From: a virus
Lineage: Duplodnaviria > Caudoviricetes
IMG/VR virus record: IMGVR_UViG_3300047564_000773
Coordinates: 1-33,959 of that record
Strand: one strand, 5' to 3'
DNA length: 33,959 bases
Below the pieces are notes generated by a model, which saw nothing but the letters and a program-made list of their open reading frames with translations, did not search any database and had not been told where the DNA came from. This document shows, piece after piece, positions 11,707-28,182 of the stretch. A program made the position numbers and the translations under genes. The number at the start of each line of letters is the position of its first letter. Position 1 is the stretch's first letter.

Positions 11707-14559
11707 TCAATCGGGTTTGTAATACAGTCCGTTTGCTTTGCGCAGCTCCTCAAGCTCGTCGATCTTGATCTGCAGCGTCGGGTCTTCCTGCAATAGTTGT
11801 TTCTTGGCCATGTCCATGAACTGCGAGTGAACGCGCTGAATGGTTTTCTGCTGATCATCCAGCGTCATTAGGTCAAAGCCTGGCGTCAGGATGGTCTGCA
11901 GGATGGCGTCCTTGGCTGGCAGCTCTTTGCCGTAGATAGTCAGCAGCCGGTTGTACTGCACCGCATCCATCTCCACGCCCTGCAGCTTGCGCTCCGGCAT
12001 CCCGACCGGGGAGCCCAGGCGCACCAGGGCGTCATCCACCTCGCTGAACTGCGACGGGCTGACCTTGGTCGGCAGCACGATCTCGAGCGGGTTGCCGCGT
12101 GACTGCAGCACCGGGTCACCCCACAGGTTGAGCTGCTCGGGCAGCGCCTCGCTGAAGTAGGGCAGGCGGCTGCGGTAGCGGTTGAAAGCCTCGACAAAGC
12201 CACGCACGCCCATCGGGAGCTCGGGGCTGGCACGCGGGTCACGCGCTGCCGGGTCGTACAGACGCTCGATGCCGGCGACGATGGAGCTCGTTCCAGGCAT
12301 CGGCGAGCCGCCGATCGCAAACGCACCGAACTGCTTGGCCAGACCGTCGACGATTTTCTTGCCGTCCACCTGGCCCTGCTGGTTGGTGCCGATCAGCTTG
12401 GCCACATCGGCCACGCCCTGCAGATACGGCTGCTCCTTCAGGTATTCGTACAGGCCATAGGTTGCGCCGAGGAAAACCTCCTCGACCTTACTGGCGTCCG
12501 GCTCATGCTTGGCGTACTCGGCATAGTCAGCAGCGATCGCCATCAGCGCCGAGACCGGTTCCATGCCTGAGTAGCTGTACCAGGTGTCGCCGACCTTCAT
12601 GCTGTACGGCTGCCAGCCATCGCGCATCGCAGCCTCGCGGTCAGCCTTGCGCTCTGGGCCGCGTCCGGTCAGATGACCCTCGGATGCCAGCATGGCGAAC
12701 GTCGCCAACATGCTTGAGCCCAGCGTCACCTTGGCCAGCGCCATGTCGCGCTGGATGCCGCCGGCTGCAACCTCGTCGCGGAAGCGGGAGGAGAGCGGGG
12801 CGAACGGCGTGCGCTCGACCACGTTCAGCCCGATGTTGGCCGGCGTCTTGAAGAATGGCACCACGACCTTGAGCGCCGGGTGGTTGAAGACATTCTGCAG
12901 CTTGGCTAGGGCTGGGGGCAGGTCGGCAGTAAACGTGCCGCGCTTGGCAAACTCGAGCGCTGCCTCGTCCAGATCCCGCGGCGGGTTGGCCAGCAGGCTG
13001 GCCGCTTCCACCTCGGCCTTGGCGATCGCCTCGGCCTCACTCAGGCCGGCGTCCAGTGCATCCCGATAAGTCGACTTGGCACGGCGGGTCACCTGGGCGT
13101 TGATCTCCATGCGGTACATCACGCCCTTGAAAAACTCATCCTCGGACATGAGCGCACGACCAGGCAGGGTGACAGCGGTGCCGTAGTAGTCCAGCCCCTT
13201 GCCGAACCATGAGCTCTGGTCGGCACCGGTCATGCGCTGCAGGGTCTCGCCCAGGCCTTCGGTCGGCGCACGATCCAGCTCAACCTTGCTGGCCAGATCC
13301 ATCTGCGGCTGGTTCTTGCGGAAGGCGGTTGATGCCAGGTCGAAGCCTTCGATCAGACCGTTGCGCAGCGACTGCACCATCGTCAGCGCTTCGTCCATCG
13401 CCAGCTTCTCATCAGCTGCACCAGGCACCAGCGACTTCCAGCTGCGCACACCAGCCGGCAGGGTGTTGGAATAGATCGATGCGATTAGCCGCTCGGGGAT
13501 CTGATACGCACCGAACATGGCATTCGAGACAATGTTCTTGGCGTGCGAGACCGGCGAGGAGAGCAGGCCGTTGATGTAGGTCGTGAACCAGACATCCTTG
13601 ACGCCGGACATCATCGAAGCCTCGACCAGCTTGTTCTTGCCGGCGCGGGTCTCGATGGACAGGTACGAACGCGCCAGGTCGGTCAGCGACTGGTCGCCAC
13701 CGTACTCGTCCAGCGTCTTGCGAATGATGTCTGCGTTGCCCTCACGCGGGATGCGGAAGACAGCCAGAGCTCGAGCGGTTTCGGTCTGGATACCCTTGAC
13801 GCCTTTCTGGATCAGGCCGTGCAGGGCGATCTGCTGCCGCAGCTTCAGCTTGTCGATGTCGGTTGCAGCACCCGAGTCGACCAGCTTGAACAGCTTGTCG
13901 AGTTCGTTGGCCGACGACTCCAGCACCTCGAGCGCCTTGTAGGTCTCGACAGCGTTGGCCATCATCTTTCCGTCGGTGCCGATCAGCCGGTTCAGGAATA
14001 CTTCATCGATGCCAGAGTCGGCAGCCTTGGCCTTGATCTCGTCGAACGTGACCGCCTTGGTCTTGATCTTTAGCGCGTCGGCCACGCCACCGATGACAGC
14101 AGCTGCGTCGTCGGTCTGGTAGCGGGGCAGGTTAAATGCCTCTTCAGGGATGCCAGCGGCTCTCTCAGCTGCGCTGACGCTCGGCTTACCCTTCACATTG
14201 CCCGTCGCCTTGCGGGCCTCTGTGGCCTGTTTAACGGCGTCTGTGAGGGTCTGGCTGGCCTCGGGGATTACAGTTCTAGTGCCGACCCTGCCGGTCGGTG
14301 GCAGGGCGTCGTCAGCAGCGCGTGCCGCCTCCGGCACCAGGTTGCGCGTCGCCTTCGGGCTTGCTTCGCGCAGGGTCTTGCGGATGACAGAGCCCAGGCC
14401 GGCAACCTGCATACCGTCCATCGACGGTGTGCCAGGCTCTACTGCCGTCTGAAGATCTGGGGTTGCCATACCCTCGGCGGGCATCGGCTCAAGCGGTAGC
14501 TGTCCAGTCGGGGCTGGTGGGATCAGCTGGTCGAGGCGCTGGTCTAGGTTGTCGGCCAT
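11707..14559 (-). CDS. Large internal virion (ejection) protein, T7 gp16-position analogue
   Basis: About 950-aa helical protein between the other ejection genes and the tail fibre; INGLLSSP.SH..N, EDEFFK, PFFKTPANI and GWQPYS..VG..W.SY...EP motifs are typical of this class. ATG 14559 overlaps the upstream TGA. Confidence 0.8.
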   Translation of the reverse strand: MADNLDQRLDQLIPPAPTGQLPLEPMPAEGMATPDLQTAVEPGTPSMDGMQVAGLGSVIRKTLREASPKATRNLVPEAARAADDALPPTGRVGTRTVIPEASQTLTDAVKQATEARKATGNVKGKPSVSAAERAAGIPEEAFNLPRYQTDDAAAVIGGVADALKIKTKAVTFDEIKAKAADSGIDEVFLNRLIGTDGKMMANAVETYKALEVLESSANELDKLFKLVDSGAATDIDKLKLRQQIALHGLIQKGVKGIQTETARALAVFRIPREGNADIIRKTLDEYGGDQSLTDLARSYLSIETRAGKNKLVEASMMSGVKDVWFTTYINGLLSSPVSHAKNIVSNAMFGAYQIPERLIASIYSNTLPAGVRSWKSLVPGAADEKLAMDEALTMVQSLRNGLIEGFDLASTAFRKNQPQMDLASKVELDRAPTEGLGETLQRMTGADQSSWFGKGLDYYGTAVTLPGRALMSEDEFFKGVMYRMEINAQVTRRAKSTYRDALDAGLSEAEAIAKAEVEAASLLANPPRDLDEAALEFAKRGTFTADLPPALAKLQNVFNHPALKVVVPFFKTPANIGLNVVERTPFAPLSSRFRDEVAAGGIQRDMALAKVTLGSSMLATFAMLASEGHLTGRGPERKADREAAMRDGWQPYSMKVGDTWYSYSGMEPVSALMAIAADYAEYAKHEPDASKVEEVFLGATYGLYEYLKEQPYLQGVADVAKLIGTNQQGQVDGKKIVDGLAKQFGAFAIGGSPMPGTSSIVAGIERLYDPAARDPRASPELPMGVRGFVEAFNRYRSRLPYFSEALPEQLNLWGDPVLQSRGNPLEIVLPTKVSPSQFSEVDDALVRLGSPVGMPERKLQGVEMDAVQYNRLLTIYGKELPAKDAILQTILTPGFDLMTLDDQQKTIQRVHSQFMDMAKKQLLQEDPTLQIKIDELEELRKANGLYYKPD

Positions 14560-16661
14560 CACTTAGCTCCTGAAGCAGGAGCGCGACGGCCCCGCGTTAC
14601 GCTTGTCTGATTTGCTCCGGCAGGCTGGACTCGTCCAGATCCTCCGGCACTCCCTCCGGGTACGCCAGCCCCAGGTAGTTCTCCCGCGTTAGCGGCAGCC
14701 CCGCCTGCTTCAGCAGATCCAGAACGTAGTCCGGCTCGCTCCCACTCGGGGGACTGGATTCCACCTGCTGTTCTGATAACGTCATTGCGTGCCTCTTCAA
14801 GGGAGAGTTTGCCCTTCCTATATTTTACCCAAATGTCGTCAATGGCTTGCACATTTTTGGCGGTCTTGAATGTGTCAGGGAATAGGCCACGGACAGCTTC
14901 CCAGGTGATCGACTGCATTTCACGCGGCAGCACGCCACGCTCTGCAGCTGCACGCCGGTAGGCCTCGGCAAACAGACCATAGGTTCCCTGCACGCCACTG
15001 ATCGAGCTGTTCTTCGGGCCGACTTCGCCCGCCACATTTGATCCGAAGTTATGCAGCACCTCGCGGCTGTTGCCCGACAGCGGGCGCAGCAAGCCTGCAG
15101 CGACTGCGTGTGTGTCGATCGTCACATGGCCGGCAGGGTCGCCAGGCGCATAGATGTTGTTGTAGAAGTTGCGCACCTTGTGCTGCTGGCCAAGCATGAT
15201 GCTGATGTTTTCACGCGTCGGGTTGTCCAAGATTGAGATCGCTTTGCCGATCTCGTTCAAAGATCCCCAGCCGGTCTTGTACGGTGCGCCAGACTGCGTC
15301 ATGCGCACGCCCATGAAATCACCTTCCGGCGACACGATCTGGTGCTCACGCGGGTTGAATGCCTGGTCATATGTACGCAGCCACAGAGCACGCTCGCCTG
15401 GGGTCTTGAGCTCTGCATAGCTCTTGCCGCGCACCAGGTCGATCACCGGCTGGTACTTCGGGTCAGCCCAGATGACAGATGCCGTCTCGTTCATTGCGTC
15501 ATCCCAGCGCCGGCCAGACTGATTGCGTGCGATGTCGATCACGCGCTGGCCAAGCGAGACATTCATAAACCAATCTTTTTGCGGTGACAGCACGGCAAGC
15601 ACGCCGGACACAGCTTGATCAGGCACACCGTACTCATTACCAAAGCGATCGGTGATGTTGCGTGCGCCGTCGTACCACAAGCGCGATCGAGTGCGCGTTC
15701 CCTCTGGCACCTGGTCGTACAGGTAGAGCAGGTTGTCCTTCACATGGCTGATGAAGTCCTCGGCCTGCTTCTCTGGCGTGCGAGCCTTTGAAACAAAATT
15801 CGGGTACTGCTTGATCAGACCCATGTTGTGAGCAAATGCGTCTGGGTCTGCCTTTGCTGAGTTGTAGTCAATGATCAGGCTGCTCTGGATCGGATCTTCA
15901 GTCGCCTTCTTTGCTGTCGGCAGGCGAGTGCTGACCACGTTCGGGCCAGGGGGTGCCACGTCCATGAGCCCACCCGTCTTGCGCAGGTAGCCTTCAACCA
16001 TCTCACCAGCAGCTGGTGCCAGCGCCTCACCTACTTTCTTCGCACCCTTTGCGGCAAGCGCAACACCAGGTACGGCGTCCAAACTTTGAAGCACCCCGGT
16101 TCCATACTGCAGCGCAGCCTGACCATATTTGCCAGCCTCTGCCGATTCCATTGCCTCGCCAGCAGCGATGCCTGCCTCCTGCGTGGCAAGCGGGATGACA
16201 AACGGCGTGACATCAATCAGGCCGATACCAAGCGGTGCGCCAGAACTATCGCCACCAAACATGGTTTGTGCCAGCCTGCGTGCGCGGGCATTGTCCATGC
16301 CGGCATTGTCAATCAACATCTGCTGCATCCCAGCAGCCAGCTTCTCGCGCAGTGTCATGTCTTTGGGAATGACAGAGCCAACAACACCAGCTTTTTGATC
16401 TTCTGCAATCCTGCGCATGATCATTTCTGATTGTGTTGCCAGCGGCATATTGCGCATCATCTCCGCAGCCTGTTCGGGGGTGGTCGGCGCTTTAGGCAGC
16501 CCAGCACCGGCAGGCGCATCGGTGCGCGTCTTGCTCGGCCCAGCAGCCAGCTGCACGCCATCCAGCGACGGCTCTGCAGCCATCGGCTCGCTCACAGCCT
16601 CGGGAAACGCAGCCATCGCCAGCGTGTCCAGATACTTCTGTTCGATCTGGCTGTAGGCCAT
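14559..16661 (-). CDS. Internal virion-cluster protein with a HhH-GPD/OGG-like (DUF7178-like) DNA-glycosylase domain
   Basis: Sits among ejection genes; motifs WYDGA, VLAVLSPQ.DW..N, HKVRNFYNNI, VTIDTHA and Y.LFAEAYR.AA.E.G.LP.EMQSITW in roughly 14885-15700. Confidence 0.75.
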   Translation of the reverse strand: MAYSQIEQKYLDTLAMAAFPEAVSEPMAAEPSLDGVQLAAGPSKTRTDAPAGAGLPKAPTTPEQAAEMMRNMPLATQSEMIMRRIAEDQKAGVVGSVIPKDMTLREKLAAGMQQMLIDNAGMDNARARRLAQTMFGGDSSGAPLGIGLIDVTPFVIPLATQEAGIAAGEAMESAEAGKYGQAALQYGTGVLQSLDAVPGVALAAKGAKKVGEALAPAAGEMVEGYLRKTGGLMDVAPPGPNVVSTRLPTAKKATEDPIQSSLIIDYNSAKADPDAFAHNMGLIKQYPNFVSKARTPEKQAEDFISHVKDNLLYLYDQVPEGTRTRSRLWYDGARNITDRFGNEYGVPDQAVSGVLAVLSPQKDWFMNVSLGQRVIDIARNQSGRRWDDAMNETASVIWADPKYQPVIDLVRGKSYAELKTPGERALWLRTYDQAFNPREHQIVSPEGDFMGVRMTQSGAPYKTGWGSLNEIGKAISILDNPTRENISIMLGQQHKVRNFYNNIYAPGDPAGHVTIDTHAVAAGLLRPLSGNSREVLHNFGSNVAGEVGPKNSSISGVQGTYGLFAEAYRRAAAERGVLPREMQSITWEAVRGLFPDTFKTAKNVQAIDDIWVKYRKGKLSLEEARNDVIRTAGGIQSPEWERAGLRSGSAEAGGAAANAGELPGAGVPGGSAGGSGRVQPAGANQTSVTRGRRAPASGAK
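14597..14785 (-). CDS. Small acidic protein (62 aa) overprinted in the C-terminal tail of the 700-aa gene
   Basis: Own RBS (AAGAGG, 6 nt, ATG at 14785); protein-like sequence DYVLDLLKQAGLPLTRENYLGLAYPEGVPEDLDE, while the host frame here is low-complexity Gly/Ala. Confidence 0.65.
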   Translation of the reverse strand: MTLSEQQVESSPPSGSEPDYVLDLLKQAGLPLTRENYLGLAYPEGVPEDLDESSLPEQIRQA

Positions 16662-16663
16662 CG

Positions 16664-18427
16664 TTACTCTCCCGCCTGGTTCAGCAGCTGCTCGATGCGG
16701 GTCACCTCGCGCTGCTTGTTGATGTCATTGCCAGCCTTCTGCTTCAGCGCAGGCAGGTTTTGCCGGGTGATCGTTCCGTTGATCCAAGGCTTTTGCTCAT
16801 ACGTCTTGAGCAAAGTGCGAGCGGATTTTGCGGCTTCGCTGTTGCGCTGCTTGGTGATGCCCTCGTCGATCTTTTCCAGAATCATCCGCGGCGTCGGCAC
16901 CTTGCCTTCGCGGATCATCTGCGCCTCGATGTCCTTGGACTGCGCTAGCAGCTCCTGGCGGCGCTTGAACTCAGCACCCTTGGGGTCGATGACCGTCACG
17001 CTGCCAGGGATGACTGGGATGCCAGCACGCTGCGAGATACCGCGGTCGAGCTCGTTCTGATCCTGCTTGTCCTCGCGGTTGAGCAGTCTAAGCGCAGCCA
17101 CAGCTTGCTTGGTGCCCAAGCCCTGCCTAGTCATCGACCAAATCTGATCAGGGCTGGTGATGCGACCCTCGAAGATACCGCGCAACAGATTGAACTCCAC
17201 GCCTGCGTTACCTTCGCCTTTGGGCGGGTCGCGCAGATCCTTCAGCACGCCGAGCGGCACAACCTTTGGATTGCGCATGGCAATAACAGCAATCTGGTCA
17301 GTCAGTTTTCTACGCTGTGCGCTGCCCTCTGGGGCAAGCAGAGCCTGGTCATACAGTGGCAAAAACTCTTTGAGGTCTGCGGCTTCTCTGTCAGCCCTCT
17401 GCTGCTTTTCAATCGCCTCGCGGTTGTTGACCGCGACCATGAAGTTGGCAGTCACCTTGGCCACAGAGTCGAAGTCGGTGGCGATCATCTGCTGCAGCAC
17501 TGGGCTCATCTTGCCCACATCGCCCGAACGAATCTTTGCCAACGTCTTCATCGGGTCGGCCATGTAGGCGTCGCCGGTGATTTCCTTCGTCACCGCGTTA
17601 ATCTTTGCAGTGCGCAGTGCTGTCTCAAACTTGGTCGAGTATTCCTTCTGCAGACCAGCATCACCCAGCAACATCGACTGCGTGTTGATGTTCTTGCGGA
17701 ACACGTCAGCGAGCTGGTCGATTGAATACTGCTGACCAGTGCGCGGGTCGGTGTAGCTGCCCTGCTGCACGGTCGCCTCGAGCAGTCGCACGCTGTTGTC
17801 GAAGTCGAGATCAAACTTGGCGATGCGCTCGTTCTTTGCGCGGGTGAGCTCGGTCTGCCGCGCCTTATCAAGCACGGTCGAGCCGTGCATCTTCATGGTC
17901 GCAGTGAACTTGAGCGCAGCTTCTGGGTCGACACTAGCCAACGACTTCGCCAGACCATTGGTCATGGTCGCGATCTTGGTCTCCACCTGCTTCGAGTTTG
18001 CGTTGCCTGTCTCGATGTCGACCAGCATCTTCGACAACTCGTTGCGACCCTCAATCTCAAAATGCGATGAGAGCTCAAGGCTTCTTGCCTTGCGCACAGC
18101 GGCATTAAAAAAGCTCGGCAGGTCGCCAGACACTTTGCCGATGCCGCCACCCAGGCCGACCGTCACACCCTCTTTGGCGAGCTGGATGTCTTCCGGCGTC
18201 AGCGGGTTGCTGGCCGCATACTCGAAACCTTCTTTGGTGCGCAGGTCTGCGGAATACTTGTTGATGGTCGTAGCCATCCGGTCGAGGATCTGCGCATACA
18301 CGTTGCTGACATTGACTTCAGCGCGGGCAGCGGTCATGTAATCGACCTCGGTCGGCACGACCTGCTGCATCGGCACACCGCCGGCACCGCGCAGCTGTAC
18401 TTGTCCTTCTGTCAGTCGCGTCGCCAT
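16664..18427 (-). CDS. Internal virion (ejection) protein, gp15-position analogue
   Basis: 587-aa helical protein in a conserved position after the small ejection protein. Confidence 0.72.
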   Translation of the reverse strand: MATRLTEGQVQLRGAGGVPMQQVVPTEVDYMTAARAEVNVSNVYAQILDRMATTINKYSADLRTKEGFEYAASNPLTPEDIQLAKEGVTVGLGGGIGKVSGDLPSFFNAAVRKARSLELSSHFEIEGRNELSKMLVDIETGNANSKQVETKIATMTNGLAKSLASVDPEAALKFTATMKMHGSTVLDKARQTELTRAKNERIAKFDLDFDNSVRLLEATVQQGSYTDPRTGQQYSIDQLADVFRKNINTQSMLLGDAGLQKEYSTKFETALRTAKINAVTKEITGDAYMADPMKTLAKIRSGDVGKMSPVLQQMIATDFDSVAKVTANFMVAVNNREAIEKQQRADREAADLKEFLPLYDQALLAPEGSAQRRKLTDQIAVIAMRNPKVVPLGVLKDLRDPPKGEGNAGVEFNLLRGIFEGRITSPDQIWSMTRQGLGTKQAVAALRLLNREDKQDQNELDRGISQRAGIPVIPGSVTVIDPKGAEFKRRQELLAQSKDIEAQMIREGKVPTPRMILEKIDEGITKQRNSEAAKSARTLLKTYEQKPWINGTITRQNLPALKQKAGNDINKQREVTRIEQLLNQAGE

Positions 18428-18438
18428 TCTTGCCCTCT

Positions 18439-19041
18439 CTATTTCCCGATAATCCGCTCACCGGCAGCAACAGCACCGGATGCCAGCGTTGCGTTAGCGA
18501 GCAGCCCGCCAGACTTACGCGCTGCGCTGCCAGCCTGTTCGTACTGCGCACCCTGGCGCTCTGCGGTGAACAGGTTCAGCATGTTCTGGTACTCGGTCGA
18601 CTGCACCAATGCGGTCGCGTCTTCGTAGCCCATAATGCGAGCGGTCAGTGCATTCAGATCAGTGATGCCAACGTCGAACATGGTTGCTCTGACGTTTTCG
18701 TTCTGCACGGCCTGCACGCTGCCTTCGCCCAGCACCACACCGTTTGCAGCAGCTCGAGCGCGGATAGCAGCATTGGTCGCACGCATGTTTTTCAGCAGCG
18801 TATTGCCAGCGATCTGATAGTTCTGCGACTCCATCTGCGACTTCTTGAGCGTGCGGCCTGCCTGAATGGCTGCATACATCTCTGCCATGTCGGCACGCAC
18901 TTCAGCCACAGCGAGGTTGTCGCGTGCTTGCAACAGATAGCCGGTCTGCTGCTGAATGCCAGCAGCGATCTGCATCTGCGATTGCGCATAACTGGTAAGA
19001 AACCCAGCGCCTGCGACAAGTTGTCCTGGTGTAATGGCCAT
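18439..19041 (-). CDS. Internal virion protein, gp14-like
   Basis: Ala/Gln-rich with RARAAANGV..GEGS motif and hydrophobic/Gly termini; immediately after the nozzle gene. Confidence 0.75.
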   Translation of the reverse strand: MAITPGQLVAGAGFLTSYAQSQMQIAAGIQQQTGYLLQARDNLAVAEVRADMAEMYAAIQAGRTLKKSQMESQNYQIAGNTLLKNMRATNAAIRARAAANGVVLGEGSVQAVQNENVRATMFDVGITDLNALTARIMGYEDATALVQSTEYQNMLNLFTAERQGAQYEQAGSAARKSGGLLANATLASGAVAAGERIIGK

Positions 19042-19043
19042 CG

Positions 19044-21032
19044 TCAGGTTCCCGAATAAACAGCGACTCGGTAATCAAGGCCGAGCAGATTCATCTTCAG
19101 CGGCAGACTCTGCGTCACTTCGATCGCCTGCTCGCGGCTGTAGCCGAGGATGCCGTTGACGCGCTTGATGCCGGTGAACGTCGGCACCGGGTCATCCAGC
19201 AGCGGGTTGTCCATCAGCCGGAAAGCAACCTCCTGCGCGTTGAGCAGGCAGTGCTGCGTGTCGTCAAGCACCGCGCTGATCTCGACGATGCGCTTCTTGA
19301 ACGACACACGGCTGCCGGTCTGCAGCTTGATCTCCACCGGCATCGTCTTGGCATAGACCGTAAACGGCAGGCCGACTTCGTAGCTGGTGGTCGATTCACG
19401 ATCAAACGTCACCGCGCCACCAGCGCTCACAGTTTCATTACTTTGCGGCACACCATCAGTAATGACGTTTAGCGACTTGCCGACGTGCGGCAGACCAGAA
19501 CCGACACCACCAGCCGAGCCACCAGTAAATGCGCAGTCGGTATACAGATCGTCCTTGAACTGCTCAATAAAGTACCTAGTTGTGCCATTGAACACGCGCT
19601 TGGTCACGACGTAGATCTGCGTCACGTCGACACCAACATCCATGAAATCACCGTCGGTGATGTACTCGCTTGGTGACGTGATCTGCTGGCTGCGCATGAT
19701 CGAGAACACCGCCATCGTGCCGTCGCTGGTGTTAGTCATCATCAGCAGATCAGCTTCCTCGGTGCTGGCGGCACGACGCAAGGCGATGCGCTGCGGGCCT
19801 TTCAACAGATGGCCTGCAAGCAGCGAGATGCGTTGAGTGATATAGGTCAGCTGCGTGTCAGAGAAGACGAACTCATTAAGCGACTTGCCCTGGCGCTGGA
19901 TGTAGATCGAGCCAGACTCAACCGACTGCACCCGCGTGCCAGGCTTGACGCCGTTGCGGCTGACCTGCTTGAAAGTGAAGGTCAGCGGCGTCACCGGATC
20001 GGTGCCTTGCTGCGGAACGACGAACTCACCGCCGGTCGTGAACACTTGGAAGTCACGCGATGAAATGATGTCCGTGATGACGTTCAGGTCATTGGTGTCG
20101 AGGGTCGCCTCGACTGCGTCATCGTCCAGCGATTCGCTTGGCACGAAATCGAAGAACAGATTGATCTTTGAGCCCCAGATGGTCGATGGGCGCGACTTGC
20201 TGCCGCCAAAATACAGCCGACCTTCATGGAACGTCACTGACCGCGGCCAGCCCTTGCCAGAGCTCCACACGTCCTCGTAGCCGGTCTCGAGCTCCCAGCT
20301 GCCGTTGGCAACCGCTGCGGTGTTGAAAAACGGGTATTCGGTGATGGCGTCGACCGATGTGGCAGAGTTGAACCGAACGATCTTTGCTCGACCCTGTGGG
20401 CTGGCATTGATGTACTGGTTGACATGGCCGCTGCTAAACACCGAGGCCGATGCGGTAATCGTGATGTTGCCGGCCACCGCAGACGGCGTGATCGTGCCGG
20501 AAGGATTGGTCGCCGCCAGCGTGAAGGCGTACTTCGGGATGCTGTCAAACGTGATCGTGCTCGCCGTCCAGCTCGCGTCAGATCCTCCGCGCACAATCTT
20601 GACCGGCTGCAGATCTGGGTGAACGATGATCAGCGTGTCAGCAGACTGCGTCCAGCACATGTCGTCGACGATGCTGCTGCCGATCGACGTAGCCAGATAG
20701 TCATTGCCCGACGCATTGATGTTGGCAATCCGCGCACCGTTCTTGATGACGTGCATTCTGTTGTGCGTGAAGCACAGCATGTAAGAGTCATCGACCGAGA
20801 ACTGGAACGGCACCAGGCGCACACCGTTGCCGGCAGACTCGGTGCCGGTATGCGGCAGCTGGTGAATGTGCTTCAAGCCTGGCCGGCGGCGCAGTCCACC
20901 TTGCGGCTGGATCAGCACGTTGGTCGCCTTCGCCAGCGCGTTCGGATAGGACTGCAGGTCAACCCGCGCACGCAGCAGCGGGTCGAGCTCCCCCGTCGAG
21001 AAGTTGGTGGCGAAGTCGACGAAGCGCGGCAT
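19044..21032 (-). CDS. Tail tubular protein B (nozzle)
   Basis: NFSTGELDP.L.AR.DL..Y, PQGG..RRPG, RLVPFQFS, TQSADTL and WP..VTFHEGRL.FGG motifs. Confidence 0.9.
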   Translation of the reverse strand: MPRFVDFATNFSTGELDPLLRARVDLQSYPNALAKATNVLIQPQGGLRRRPGLKHIHQLPHTGTESAGNGVRLVPFQFSVDDSYMLCFTHNRMHVIKNGARIANINASGNDYLATSIGSSIVDDMCWTQSADTLIIVHPDLQPVKIVRGGSDASWTASTITFDSIPKYAFTLAATNPSGTITPSAVAGNITITASASVFSSGHVNQYINASPQGRAKIVRFNSATSVDAITEYPFFNTAAVANGSWELETGYEDVWSSGKGWPRSVTFHEGRLYFGGSKSRPSTIWGSKINLFFDFVPSESLDDDAVEATLDTNDLNVITDIISSRDFQVFTTGGEFVVPQQGTDPVTPLTFTFKQVSRNGVKPGTRVQSVESGSIYIQRQGKSLNEFVFSDTQLTYITQRISLLAGHLLKGPQRIALRRAASTEEADLLMMTNTSDGTMAVFSIMRSQQITSPSEYITDGDFMDVGVDVTQIYVVTKRVFNGTTRYFIEQFKDDLYTDCAFTGGSAGGVGSGLPHVGKSLNVITDGVPQSNETVSAGGAVTFDRESTTSYEVGLPFTVYAKTMPVEIKLQTGSRVSFKKRIVEISAVLDDTQHCLLNAQEVAFRLMDNPLLDDPVPTFTGIKRVNGILGYSREQAIEVTQSLPLKMNLLGLDYRVAVYSGT

Positions 21033-26540: not shown

Positions 26541-27335
26541 TCAAGCTCCTTGCAACATGCCGCGGCTCATGCGGCGCATGACGACGTTTTGTTTTGCAGC
26601 TTTACGCTCACCGACCTCGCGCTCGTATGTCTTGCCGAGCTCTTCGCGCTTTTGTTGAAACTGACCTGTCTCAAACGTCGGCAGCTGCGGCGCTGATGGC
26701 GCAGACGGTGGCGTCGGTAGACTGAGCGTCGGCGCAGAAATGTTCGGCGCTTGCGGCGGTGCCTCGCTGAATGCGGGAACGTCGCGTGTACGAAACACCT
26801 GCTGCTCTGTGACATCGACCGTCCGGCCTCTGTTTTGCGTTTGACCGGTCACGACGGTGTCAATGAAGTACCCAGACGGCAGGTTGTTCTGCGAATACAG
26901 CTGGCCACCGATGTTGTAAGACGTGCCTGACCGCCCTTGGGATACCGCAGTGGCGCTCACTCTCTCGGTCGGATTCGCAGCAATATTGGCCAGTGTTGCG
27001 TTGTACGCATTCAACCGCTGCTGATATGCCGCGACCTGGGCGTCGTAGTTCGCCATCGTTTGGGCGTATGCCTGCGACTGTTGTTGAAACGCAGTATTCG
27101 CAGCCAGCACTTGACTCTGGTAGGCAGGGAAGTCCTGCTGCGTGTATCTGTTGACCGCGGCCTCGTAGGGGTCGAGCACCGCTTTGGTTTGAGCAGTCCA
27201 GTTCTTGAAACCAGTGGCCTGATCCTGGGCGACATCAAAAAGGCCGCTCTGGTATGTCTTAGCCAGGCGCTCGATGTCTGCAGTCGCACGACGTGCGGCC
27301 TGCTTCTTTTGGTACATGCTTGGGCCGGTCGCCAT
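26541..27335 (-). CDS. Gln/Ala-rich hypothetical protein (probably virion-associated)
   Basis: 264-aa ORF, TAATG-coupled; coiled coil plus Pro-rich linker; upstream of the portal. Confidence 0.7.
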   Translation of the reverse strand: MATGPSMYQKKQAARRATADIERLAKTYQSGLFDVAQDQATGFKNWTAQTKAVLDPYEAAVNRYTQQDFPAYQSQVLAANTAFQQQSQAYAQTMANYDAQVAAYQQRLNAYNATLANIAANPTERVSATAVSQGRSGTSYNIGGQLYSQNNLPSGYFIDTVVTGQTQNRGRTVDVTEQQVFRTRDVPAFSEAPPQAPNISAPTLSLPTPPSAPSAPQLPTFETGQFQQKREELGKTYEREVGERKAAKQNVVMRRMSRGMLQGA

Positions 27336-27859
27336 TACATCATCCCCATGCCAGCGCCGAGGGTGTCTTGGGTGATGCCGAGCTCGGGCGTCAGACGTTC
27401 TTGAGAGAGCAGGGCGCGGCGGCCACCGCGGGTGCGAGCTTTGAGCTGGGTTGCTTGCTGCTCTGCAGCCTTGCGGCGCTCTTCATCGATCTGACCCTGG
27501 ATCTCTTTGGCCTTGCGCTCCATCTCCATGCGCGAGGCCTCGTACTGCGAGACACCGGTCTCGTAGGCCTTGGTGTTTAGCGCCAGCTGATTCTGCGCAA
27601 CCGACAGCTGCTCAGACATTGCCTTCGTCGTGGATGCAAGCTGCTCTTTCGCAAGCCGCGACTGCTCTTCGAGCGCGCCGGCCTGTCTACTGAATACCGA
27701 AGTCTGCTCAGACAGTTTTGTTTGAAATGCCGCTTGATCTGCAGCCTGTCGCTCAAGCGCTGCCCGCTGCTGCGATTCGGCCTCTCTGCGCGCCTTGCGC
27801 GATTCGTTGGCGGTGTAGGCAGAGCCCAAAAGGATCGCGCCCGCAATGAAGAATGGCAT
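27335..27859 (-). CDS. Coiled-coil virion-associated protein (pre-portal, T7 gp7.3-position-like)
   Basis: Hydrophobic N-terminus, long coiled coil and C-terminal GGRRALLS...TLG; RBS AGGAGG. Confidence 0.7.
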   Translation of the reverse strand: MPFFIAGAILLGSAYTANESRKARREAESQQRAALERQAADQAAFQTKLSEQTSVFSRQAGALEEQSRLAKEQLASTTKAMSEQLSVAQNQLALNTKAYETGVSQYEASRMEMERKAKEIQGQIDEERRKAAEQQATQLKARTRGGRRALLSQERLTPELGITQDTLGAGMGMM

Positions 27860-27861
27860 GA

Positions 27862-28182
27862 CTACCTCCTAATCAGAACTTCATCCAGTTTGTCGACATC
27901 GGTCTCGTCGGTTGCGTGGATGCAAAACCAGACCGCATCTTCGAGCGCTGTGATCTGGTGATGCGTGTTCGCCAGGATGGTCACGCACGCCGGCGCACGC
28001 AGCATCTGCACCACGCCATCGGCCTCGAGCTCCACCACGCCCGCAGCCAGAATGCTCAGATGGTCGTACTCATGCGCATGAGTCACCGCGAAATGCCCAG
28101 CAGGCAGCAGCATCTTTCGCGCATACACCCCATCACTGAAGTGATGCGAGATGTTCAGATCGATCTCGATGTTGTCGTCCAT
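27862..28182 (-). CDS. Cupin-fold protein
   Basis: HHFSDGVYARKM.LPAG...VTHAH.YDHLSIL..G.V...AP.......THH.ITALEDAVWFCIH; His-rich metal site. Confidence 0.8.
   Translation of the reverse strand: MDDNIEIDLNISHHFSDGVYARKMLLPAGHFAVTHAHEYDHLSILAAGVVELEADGVVQMLRAPACVTILANTHHQITALEDAVWFCIHATDETDVDKLDEVLIRR

Follow-up and report, generated by a model that had tools for sequence, protein, structure and literature searches.

A polymorphic carrier-cargo gene in the ejection cluster of a freshwater podophage, with predicted DNA glycosylases as its commonest cargos

Introduction

In the MuF polymorphic toxins of temperate phages, the N-terminal packaging module is conserved while the C-terminal enzyme varies (accessible parts of PMC9503650 and PMC12226406), and phage polyvalent proteins are predicted to be injected (accessible parts of PMC5512222 and PMC9503650). 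Dag1 cleaves 7-deazaguanine DNA using a Lys and an Asp together with a stacking Trp, as described in the available portion of a preprint (bioRxiv 2025.10.29.685425). Here, we analyse a gene of 700 amino acids (aa) in the virus record IMGVR_UViG_3300047564_000773. The window analysed is the whole record, which spans 33,959 bases, carries direct terminal repeats and represents the complete genome of a freshwater podophage. Our main finding is that this gene, part of a podovirus ejection cluster, is polymorphic and of the carrier-cargo type, and that its commonest cargos are predicted DNA glycosylases.

A carrier with exchangeable cargos

The gene is the third of four located between the nozzle and tail fibre genes, and its product is a two-part protein: residues 1-240 constitute the carrier, while residues 241-644 form a domain that matches Pfam DUF7178 (PF23802; E 7.6e-26, 91.7 bits against a curated cut-off of 27). 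The hydropathy profile of the carrier reveals a mildly hydrophobic stretch at residues ~138-167. The gene and its parts are as follows:

14559-16661, minus strand: 700-aa carrier-plus-cargo gene, third of four ejection-cluster genes (open reading frame (ORF) call)
15942-16661, minus strand: N-terminal carrier (residues 1-240), common to other cargos (identity to locus L316, carrier profiles)
14730-15941, minus strand: DUF7178/phrog_3842 cargo domain (residues 241-644), with a predicted HhH-GPD glycosylase fold (family match, model)
14559-14729, minus strand: low-complexity G/A/S-rich tail (residues 645-700) and stop codon, overlapping the start of the next gene

Related loci were retrieved through the flanking genes only. 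This yielded 294 loci, 214 of them with both flanks, representing 169 distinct slot contents, which are not to be read as independent genomes. Glycosylase-like domains occupy the slot in 96 of the 169 and fall into six clades: A (27 contents, including the gene under study), B (25), C (17), F (11), D (9) and E (7). The motif skeleton of clades B-F resembles that of A. The remaining contents comprise ART-PolyVal (12, ten of which exceed the Pfam cut-off, one lies under it and one was assigned by clustering), an unknown family (12), GP88 (9), a second unknown family (5), a PBECR5 RNase (3), and ten others that include a zeta-toxin-like, a weakly RelA/SpoT-like and two lysozyme cargos. In 22 cases the carrier stands alone and the slot is empty. 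Pfam or profile comparison connects clades B and F with DUF7178 (A-B, E 9e-7; B-F, 3e-7; C-F, 2e-5), and neither of the two has a match in the GenBank phage set. Clades D and E tie to the other clades weakly (best E 0.001-0.002), and these 16 of the 96 are putatively glycosylase-like by motif order alone. Alignment of each clade with OGG2 by hhalign was not significant (E 0.03-0.48).

The carrier itself is shared, with the profiles of clades A and C aligning at E 2e-27, and the cargo behind it is exchanged. Among pairs of loci whose neighbouring gp16-like proteins share ≥90% identity (within the 30 best hits of each query), 128 of 198 differ in cargo; the window has four such neighbours within the same limit, all with a different cargo. 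In locus L316, residues 1-240 are 99.2% identical to those of the window, after which the DNA switches abruptly, at window position 15942, to an unknown domain plus ART-PolyVal. No loose end was seen at the swap point in the listed rows of the contig overlays, and an independent lake contig spans window positions 13800-16464 without gaps. By the gp16-like protein, the nearest relative in GenBank is MEP301, a short-tailed OM43 phage described in PMC8024684, a paper in which the term 'mass spectrometry' does not occur. Its genes follow the same order, and its slot gene, gp25, has 161 aa and encodes the carrier alone (E 1.3e-8 in a comparison of six proteins). The slot gene is, in short, built of carrier and cargo, and its cargos are swapped. 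An earlier note on this DNA had suggested that the protein is an extra cargo of the ejection machinery, and this idea is supported: the slot consists of a carrier with exchangeable cargos and is sometimes empty.

Several other slot contents were recorded. A GP88 (PF17338) domain with a CxxxCxxxC motif sits on the same carrier in L399:4702-6825 and eight related slot genes, and is possibly an injected iron-sulfur enzyme; we assume a likeness of GP88 to radical S-adenosylmethionine enzymes. A conserved cargo of ~480 aa without a Pfam match, marked by a conserved E-x-Q-S-D-W-H-Q-x-G-R, forms a putative effector family of 12 slot genes (e.g., L263:4790-6925 and L405:4830-7001). A small cargo of ~150 aa weakly matches a stretch of phrog_15406 (L091:11773-12819, L104, L335, L358 and L316), and in L316 it occurs in tandem with ART-PolyVal. 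The 715-aa slot protein of L340:4857-7004 is unique, with a conserved-looking H-D-Y-F-G-H stretch and no family match. In MEP301 (L475, MW452941; 6808-10395), the carrier-only slot gene is accompanied by a gp16-like gene annotated in two pieces (gp24 and gp23).

Predicted fold of the cargo domain

An AlphaFold2 model of residues 241-644, built from 98 sequences, has a mean predicted local distance difference test (pLDDT) score of 92.3 and a predicted template modelling (pTM) score of 0.89. A structure search independent of Foldseek and covering 48,161 chains returned helix-hairpin-helix (HhH)-type glycosylases or their kin in all of rows 1-24 (Z 9.4-4.0), with the first unrelated row at Z 3.8. 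The best match is TmOGG2 (Z 9.4, root-mean-square deviation (rmsd) 3.9, 185 aligned residues), followed by the queuine-salvage enzyme QNG1 (Z 8.7 and 8.5), which we take to be related to the HhH glycosylases, by Pa-AGOG (7.5), and then by EndoIII, MagIII, ROS1, hOGG1, MutY, AlkA and MBD4. For a helical protein, a top Z of this size is modest; it is the unanimity of rows 1-24 that gives the fold call its weight. The model of the sister cargo clade C (pLDDT 81.7) matches TmOGG2 at Z 15.6, with an rmsd of 3.1 and 207 of 209 residues aligned. On the basis of these models, residues 241-644 very probably adopt an HhH-GPD fold, and the OGG-type assignment made in the earlier note is upheld by both the confident model and the glycosylase superfamily membership or kinship of the 24 leading rows.

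Searches at the sequence level contributed less. Those of the PDB with the protein, its profile and clade C returned nothing relevant, and Ogg-HhH (PF22175) gave no match in the genome, with its controls detected. PF09171 (AGOG, in which Gln31 and Trp69 form the sensor) gave no match, but its controls also gave none. The ESM Atlas produced only lead-level scores (0.75-0.78), to AGOG, Ogg-HhH and HhH-GPD clusters. An amino acid:DNA transferase, i.e., a hypermodification enzyme of the PaMx11 gp46 type, was considered and is unlikely, with Z values of only 3.8 and 3.5.

The putative active site

The motifs on which the initial prediction was based occur in the order claimed: LSPQ at residue 358, HKVRNFYNNI at 494, VTIDTHA at 513, YGLFAEAY at 561 and PREMQSITW at 579. 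A Gly/Pro-rich stretch precedes the Asp (APGDPAGHVTID516TH). The corresponding features are:

15672-15677, minus strand: invariant W329-Y330 (conservation)
15561-15590, minus strand: LSPQ..W..N motif, residues 358-367 (motif, conservation)
15150-15215, minus strand: predicted helix-hairpin-helix, residues 483-504, with G491 and the candidate nucleophile K495 (15177-15179) (DSSP of the model, conservation)
15105-15125, minus strand: VTIDTHA, with the candidate catalytic D516 (15114-15116) directly before a helix, plus H518 (model, conservation)
14901-14915, minus strand: Q583-x3-W587, in register with hOGG1 Q315/F319, which provide guanine-face contact and base stacking (alignment end-points)

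The LSPQ..W..N motif is presumably the DNA-wedge loop, by analogy with the LSAQ of EndoIII. DSSP assigns helices to model positions 243-250 and 254-264; K495 opens the second of these, G491 lies in the turn, and D516 falls right before the next helix. The counterparts in hOGG1 are Lys249, Asp268 and His270 (accessible text of PMC3397491), and secondary structure suggests that K495 and D516 are placed as are Lys249 and Asp268. The assignment of the catalytic Lys and Asp thus gains support from the helix positions in the model and from the fold search.

The motifs are not a product of chance. Conservation was assessed in 103 newly found representatives (43-76% identity) which, being the top profile hits, were selected for similarity: all 103 keep K495, D516, H518, Q583, F499, N502, R580, W587, W329 and Y330. 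Across the whole domain, by contrast, invariance in this set is restricted to 2 of the 20 Lys and 3 of the 25 Asp residues. All 41 genome-collection loci likewise retain K495, D516, H518 and Q583, but these very motifs served as patterns in that search. The ratio of non-synonymous to synonymous substitution rates (dN/dS) is 0.09-0.21 in all four pairs.

In nine of ten OGG1 rows, Q583 and W587 fall on Q315/F319 (human and mouse) or on Q278/F282 (Clostridium), a register taken from the alignment end-points on the assumption of a gap-free last helix. Gln315 of hOGG1 contacts N1 of the base, on which an aromatic residue stacks (PMC3397491, accessible text). From the register of Q583 and W587 with this pair, we infer a guanine-type pocket. 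Judged on the model, the active site is likely to be intact, and a guanine-type substrate is somewhat favoured.

The likeness of the phage Trp to a C-terminal Trp of OGG2, drawn in the earlier note, applies only in part. In OGG2, W198 in the last helix is indeed the base-stacking residue, as W587 would be here; the C-terminal residue, however, is a Lys that senses 8-oxoguanine and not a Trp (same source, in part). The 700-aa protein has no such terminal-Lys arrangement, as its chain continues for 113 residues past W587.

Genome context

Family searches of the window proteins identified a T7-type head-tail connector, nozzle and tail tube proteins, an O-like replication initiator, RecE/RecT, a serine recombinase and a GH19 endolysin. 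On the minus strand, the nozzle gene (19044-21032) is followed by genes of 200 aa, 587 aa, 700 aa (the target) and 951 aa, and then by the tail fibre gene:

18439-19041, minus strand: 200-aa ejection-cluster gene, gp14-like by position only
16664-18427, minus strand: 587-aa upstream ejection-cluster gene, gp15-like by position only, with MEP301 gp26 as its homologue
11707-14562, minus strand: 951-aa internal virion protein D-like (gp16-like) gene (family match and tblastn)

The 951-aa neighbour matches the internal virion protein family phrog_6651 (E 1.9e-33), and its tblastn matches carry the annotation 'internal virion protein D'. The 587-aa and 200-aa proteins have no family match in Pfam, PHROGs or NCBIfam. 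Hence, of the proposed location between gp15-like and gp16-like genes, the gp16-like side is confirmed by family, while the gp15-like label, as also the gp14-like one, is positional. Fusion of the gp14-like to the gp15-like gene, or a gp15-like gene ~200-250 aa longer, is seen in some relatives (L010, 788 aa; L020, L030, L057 and L058), which suggests further cargo positions.

The runs that hold the 700-aa gene are labelled lake or freshwater metagenome, with one labelled simply 'metagenome'; no RNA run is present among the listed holders. Between the terminase and portal genes lie two Gln/Ala-rich, coiled-coil-like ORFs (26541-27335 and 27335-27859, minus strand), preceded by a cupin gene (27862-28182). 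These two ORFs have no credible family match and may encode further virion or pilot proteins. The serine recombinase (resolvase plus short recombinase domain) is encoded at 254-934 on the plus strand, with RecE/RecT and the O-like initiator elsewhere, and in view of these genes the phage may be temperate.

The domain in other proteins and phages

The DUF7178-type family is large, with 6,317 clusters at 50% identity (E≤0.001), or 1,902 at E≤1e-30. In 1,627 of 6,128 candidates, the domain resides inside proteins of 1,226-3,500 aa, and LPD22, LPD38, ART-PolyVal or SLT domains accompany it in many of the 120 long proteins listed. It is also found in a 3,100-aa protein encoded after the internal virion genes of phage LS06-2018-MD07, and in the head region of CRP-738. 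In one of the 120 long proteins it is fused to a gp16-like protein. We found no support for the notion that such giant ejection proteins were split and left their front half as the slot gene: the carrier is found in none of the 120 and a gp16-like part in one. In prophage-like loci of Bradyrhizobium isolate genomes (L159, L161 and L162), the domain opens a ~1,150-aa protein downstream of the terminase, in a head-gene context; in L159 this protein is encoded upstream of a prohead protease-capsid fusion.

Proposed function and alternatives

We tentatively propose, at somewhat less than even confidence, that the cargo is an injected glycosylase/AP (apurinic/apyrimidinic) lyase that removes a modified guanine from non-self DNA. 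The carrier would bring the protein into the head alongside the remaining ejection proteins, and the protein would then enter the cell together with the phage DNA; such packaging and injection appear probable. During the first minutes of infection, the domain would excise a guanine derivative in non-self DNA, the target being either a modified phage that infects the same cell or modification marks of the host. In a chemistry of the OGG/Dag1 type, the base would be flipped between F499 and W587 with Q583 reading its guanine face, D516 would assist glycosidic cleavage, and a Schiff base formed by K495 would lead to a strand nick. A role in conflict rather than housekeeping is suggested by the cargos with which the domain shares the slot (ART, RNase, kinase-like and lysozyme), by its dispensability, and by the alternation of six clades. 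The rest being granted, we consider the chances of a non-self target, rather than repair, to be even. QueC is found in none of 46 near-complete relatives and in none of three GenBank phage records, so that no deazaguanine pathway of their own is seen in these phages and the enzyme would not hit their own DNA. A C5 methyltransferase is encoded by a clade-A phage (L022), and by 5 of the 46 relatives overall, and N6/N4 methylases by none of the 46. A 5-methylcytosine target is less likely, given the C5 methyltransferase of L022.

A number of observations weigh against this proposal. The best Z of 9.4 lies below the level of ~13 under which the tool advises caution for helical proteins. Foldseek against the PDB, a check envisaged in the earlier note, found no match at E≤0.001 (AGOG ranks 5 and 7). 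The alignment of the domain profile with 31 OGG2 homologues is not significant (hhalign E 0.43; reversed control 0.5), and it pairs the Q-x3-W with D-x3-W. One OGG1 row, 3f10, is off register. The nearest folds are repair enzymes for 8-oxoguanine (8-oxoG), the strong conservation within the clade fits a housekeeping substrate equally well, and a Gln stands at the place of the essential D184 of Dag1, four residues before the Trp. The absence of QueC is only compatible with the proposed reading, and not diagnostic of it. Finally, the domain occurs between RusA and the terminase in phages with a P22-type portal (L075 and L079), and as a stand-alone gene of 198 aa, S-CBP42_0036, in the early region upstream of the RNA polymerase gene of Synechococcus phage S-CBP42. 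Virion delivery is therefore not obligatory for the family.

The protein might instead be an injected repair enzyme that clears 8-oxoG and formamidopyrimidine-guanine (FapyG) built up in the phage's own DNA in sunlit water, leaving abasic sites to host repair. The closeness of the fold to OGG2, AGOG and OGG1, the Q-x3-aromatic element as in hOGG1 and the lake and freshwater origin of the holder runs would all agree with this, an ejected protein would be the first to meet the entering genome, and the invariant K599, 12 residues after W587, might speculatively replace the terminal Lys of OGG2. We nevertheless regard it as unlikely, as the domain can be replaced by ART, RNase, kinase-like or lysozyme cargos, can be dispensed with (22 of 169 slots are empty), alternates between six divergent clades in a single slot and lacks a C-terminal Lys sensor. 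Furthermore, hosts usually carry Fpg. Counter-defence is a related thought: the domain would strip a defence-installed adduct, such as ADP-ribosylated guanine, from the incoming genome, or bind and shield that genome. Early delivery and co-occurrence with polyvalent-protein domains are in keeping with such a role, virion-packed countermeasures are the subject of speculation in the available part of the Dag preprint (bioRxiv 2025.10.29.685425), and HhH folds can serve as pure sensors in END nucleases (PMC12191111, in part). Excising bases from, and nicking, one's own entering genome would be risky, though, no PADLOC match or link to a specific defence was found, and the invariant Lys and Asp speak against a mere shield, which makes this quite unlikely.

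The domains found beside RusA and the terminase or in an early region could point to an active glycosylase that is not packaged, and that acts as a late product in the producing cell, through breakdown of host DNA or superinfection exclusion. To this we assign a slim chance, in view of the fixed position between ejection genes with a stop/start overlap, the retention of the carrier when empty (including in the cultured MEP301), the lysozyme cargos in the same slot and the one fusion to a gp16-like protein. Very improbable, in our estimate, is a substrate other than DNA, in which case the domain would resemble QNG1 and hydrolyse queuosine nucleotides, tRNA or signalling nucleotides. As a fold match, QNG1 ranks second and spans a larger part of the model (Z 8.7, 222 residues aligned from residue 19), but its identity is 5-7%, against 12-13% for OGG2 and AGOG, the domain retains both the HhH and the SPQ motif of the wedge type, and clade C is clearly OGG2-like.

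Significance and comparison with known systems

The injected-glycosylase proposal can be taken further. In a bolder picture, which we consider doubtful, a widespread group of small freshwater podophages would maintain a dedicated, exchangeable effector bay in the ejectosome, most often filled by six clades of injected glycosylases, each reading a different modified base and destroying co-infecting modified phages or stripping host marks. If true, this would amount to virion-delivered, phage-versus-phage base-excision warfare, and would offer both a small natural vehicle for delivering proteins and a large reservoir of base-specific enzymes still to be exploited. The present analysis assigns a predicted fold and active site to the large DUF7178 family, which had no assigned function, and places DNA glycosylases, so far described on the bacterial side (Brig1 and Dag), among likely phage-injected effectors. 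The compact carrier with its sharp swap point at residue 240, together with the cultured empty-bay phage MEP301, makes packaging and injection of polyvalent-type cargos testable, and the six clades, whose pockets differ, offer candidates for new base-specific enzymes with which DNA modifications could be mapped. In a literature search that left most subscription papers outside its reach, neither the term 'DUF7178' nor any account of this slot or of an HhH glycosylase delivered by the virion was found; the C-terminal part of the protein likely represents a type of injected weapon not described before. Neither PADLOC nor NCBIfam yielded a match.

Among the enzymes compared, OGG2, AGOG and OGG1 share with the domain the predicted fold, a Lys that begins the HhH's second helix, an Asp-x-His before the next helix, and a Gln/Asp-x3-aromatic in the last helix. 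Unlike them, the phage domain is ~400 aa long with large insertions, viral and fused to a carrier, with no significant sequence similarity, and the terminal Lys sensor of OGG2 is missing. S-CBP42_0036, itself a member of DUF7178/PHROG 3842, has the same K, D-x-H and Q-x3-W. Dag1 and Dag2, compared here by their description in the available preprint text and not by sequence, likewise use an HhH glycosylase fold in conflict, with a Lys, an Asp and a stacking Trp. They are bacterial defence genes in integrons, whereas the present gene is phage-encoded, its product is likely virion-delivered, and it has a Gln in place of D184.

The polyvalent proteins (Iyer et al. 2017, PMC5512222, accessible parts) similarly place enzymatic modules in late or virion genes, are predicted to be injected, and have the partner domains ART-PolyVal, LPD22, LPD38 and PBECR in common with the slot gene and its homologues. 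They carry at least two disparate domains per chain, in contrast to the small, one-cargo slot gene with its dedicated carrier, although homologues of the domain do occur in chains of that kind. The word 'glycosylase' does not appear in the main text of PMC5512222, the supplementary tables of which could list the domain unnamed, and no LPD Pfam model matches it. As in the MuF polymorphic toxins, a variable C-terminal enzyme follows a conserved N-terminus; unlike in those toxins, the carrier has no MuF match in Pfam, PHROGs or NCBIfam, the gene belongs to a podovirus ejection cluster, and no immunity gene follows, the next gene overlapping the stop codon. The slot gene would work like the MuF or polyvalent effectors, is by definition a member of neither group, and is not an OGG2.

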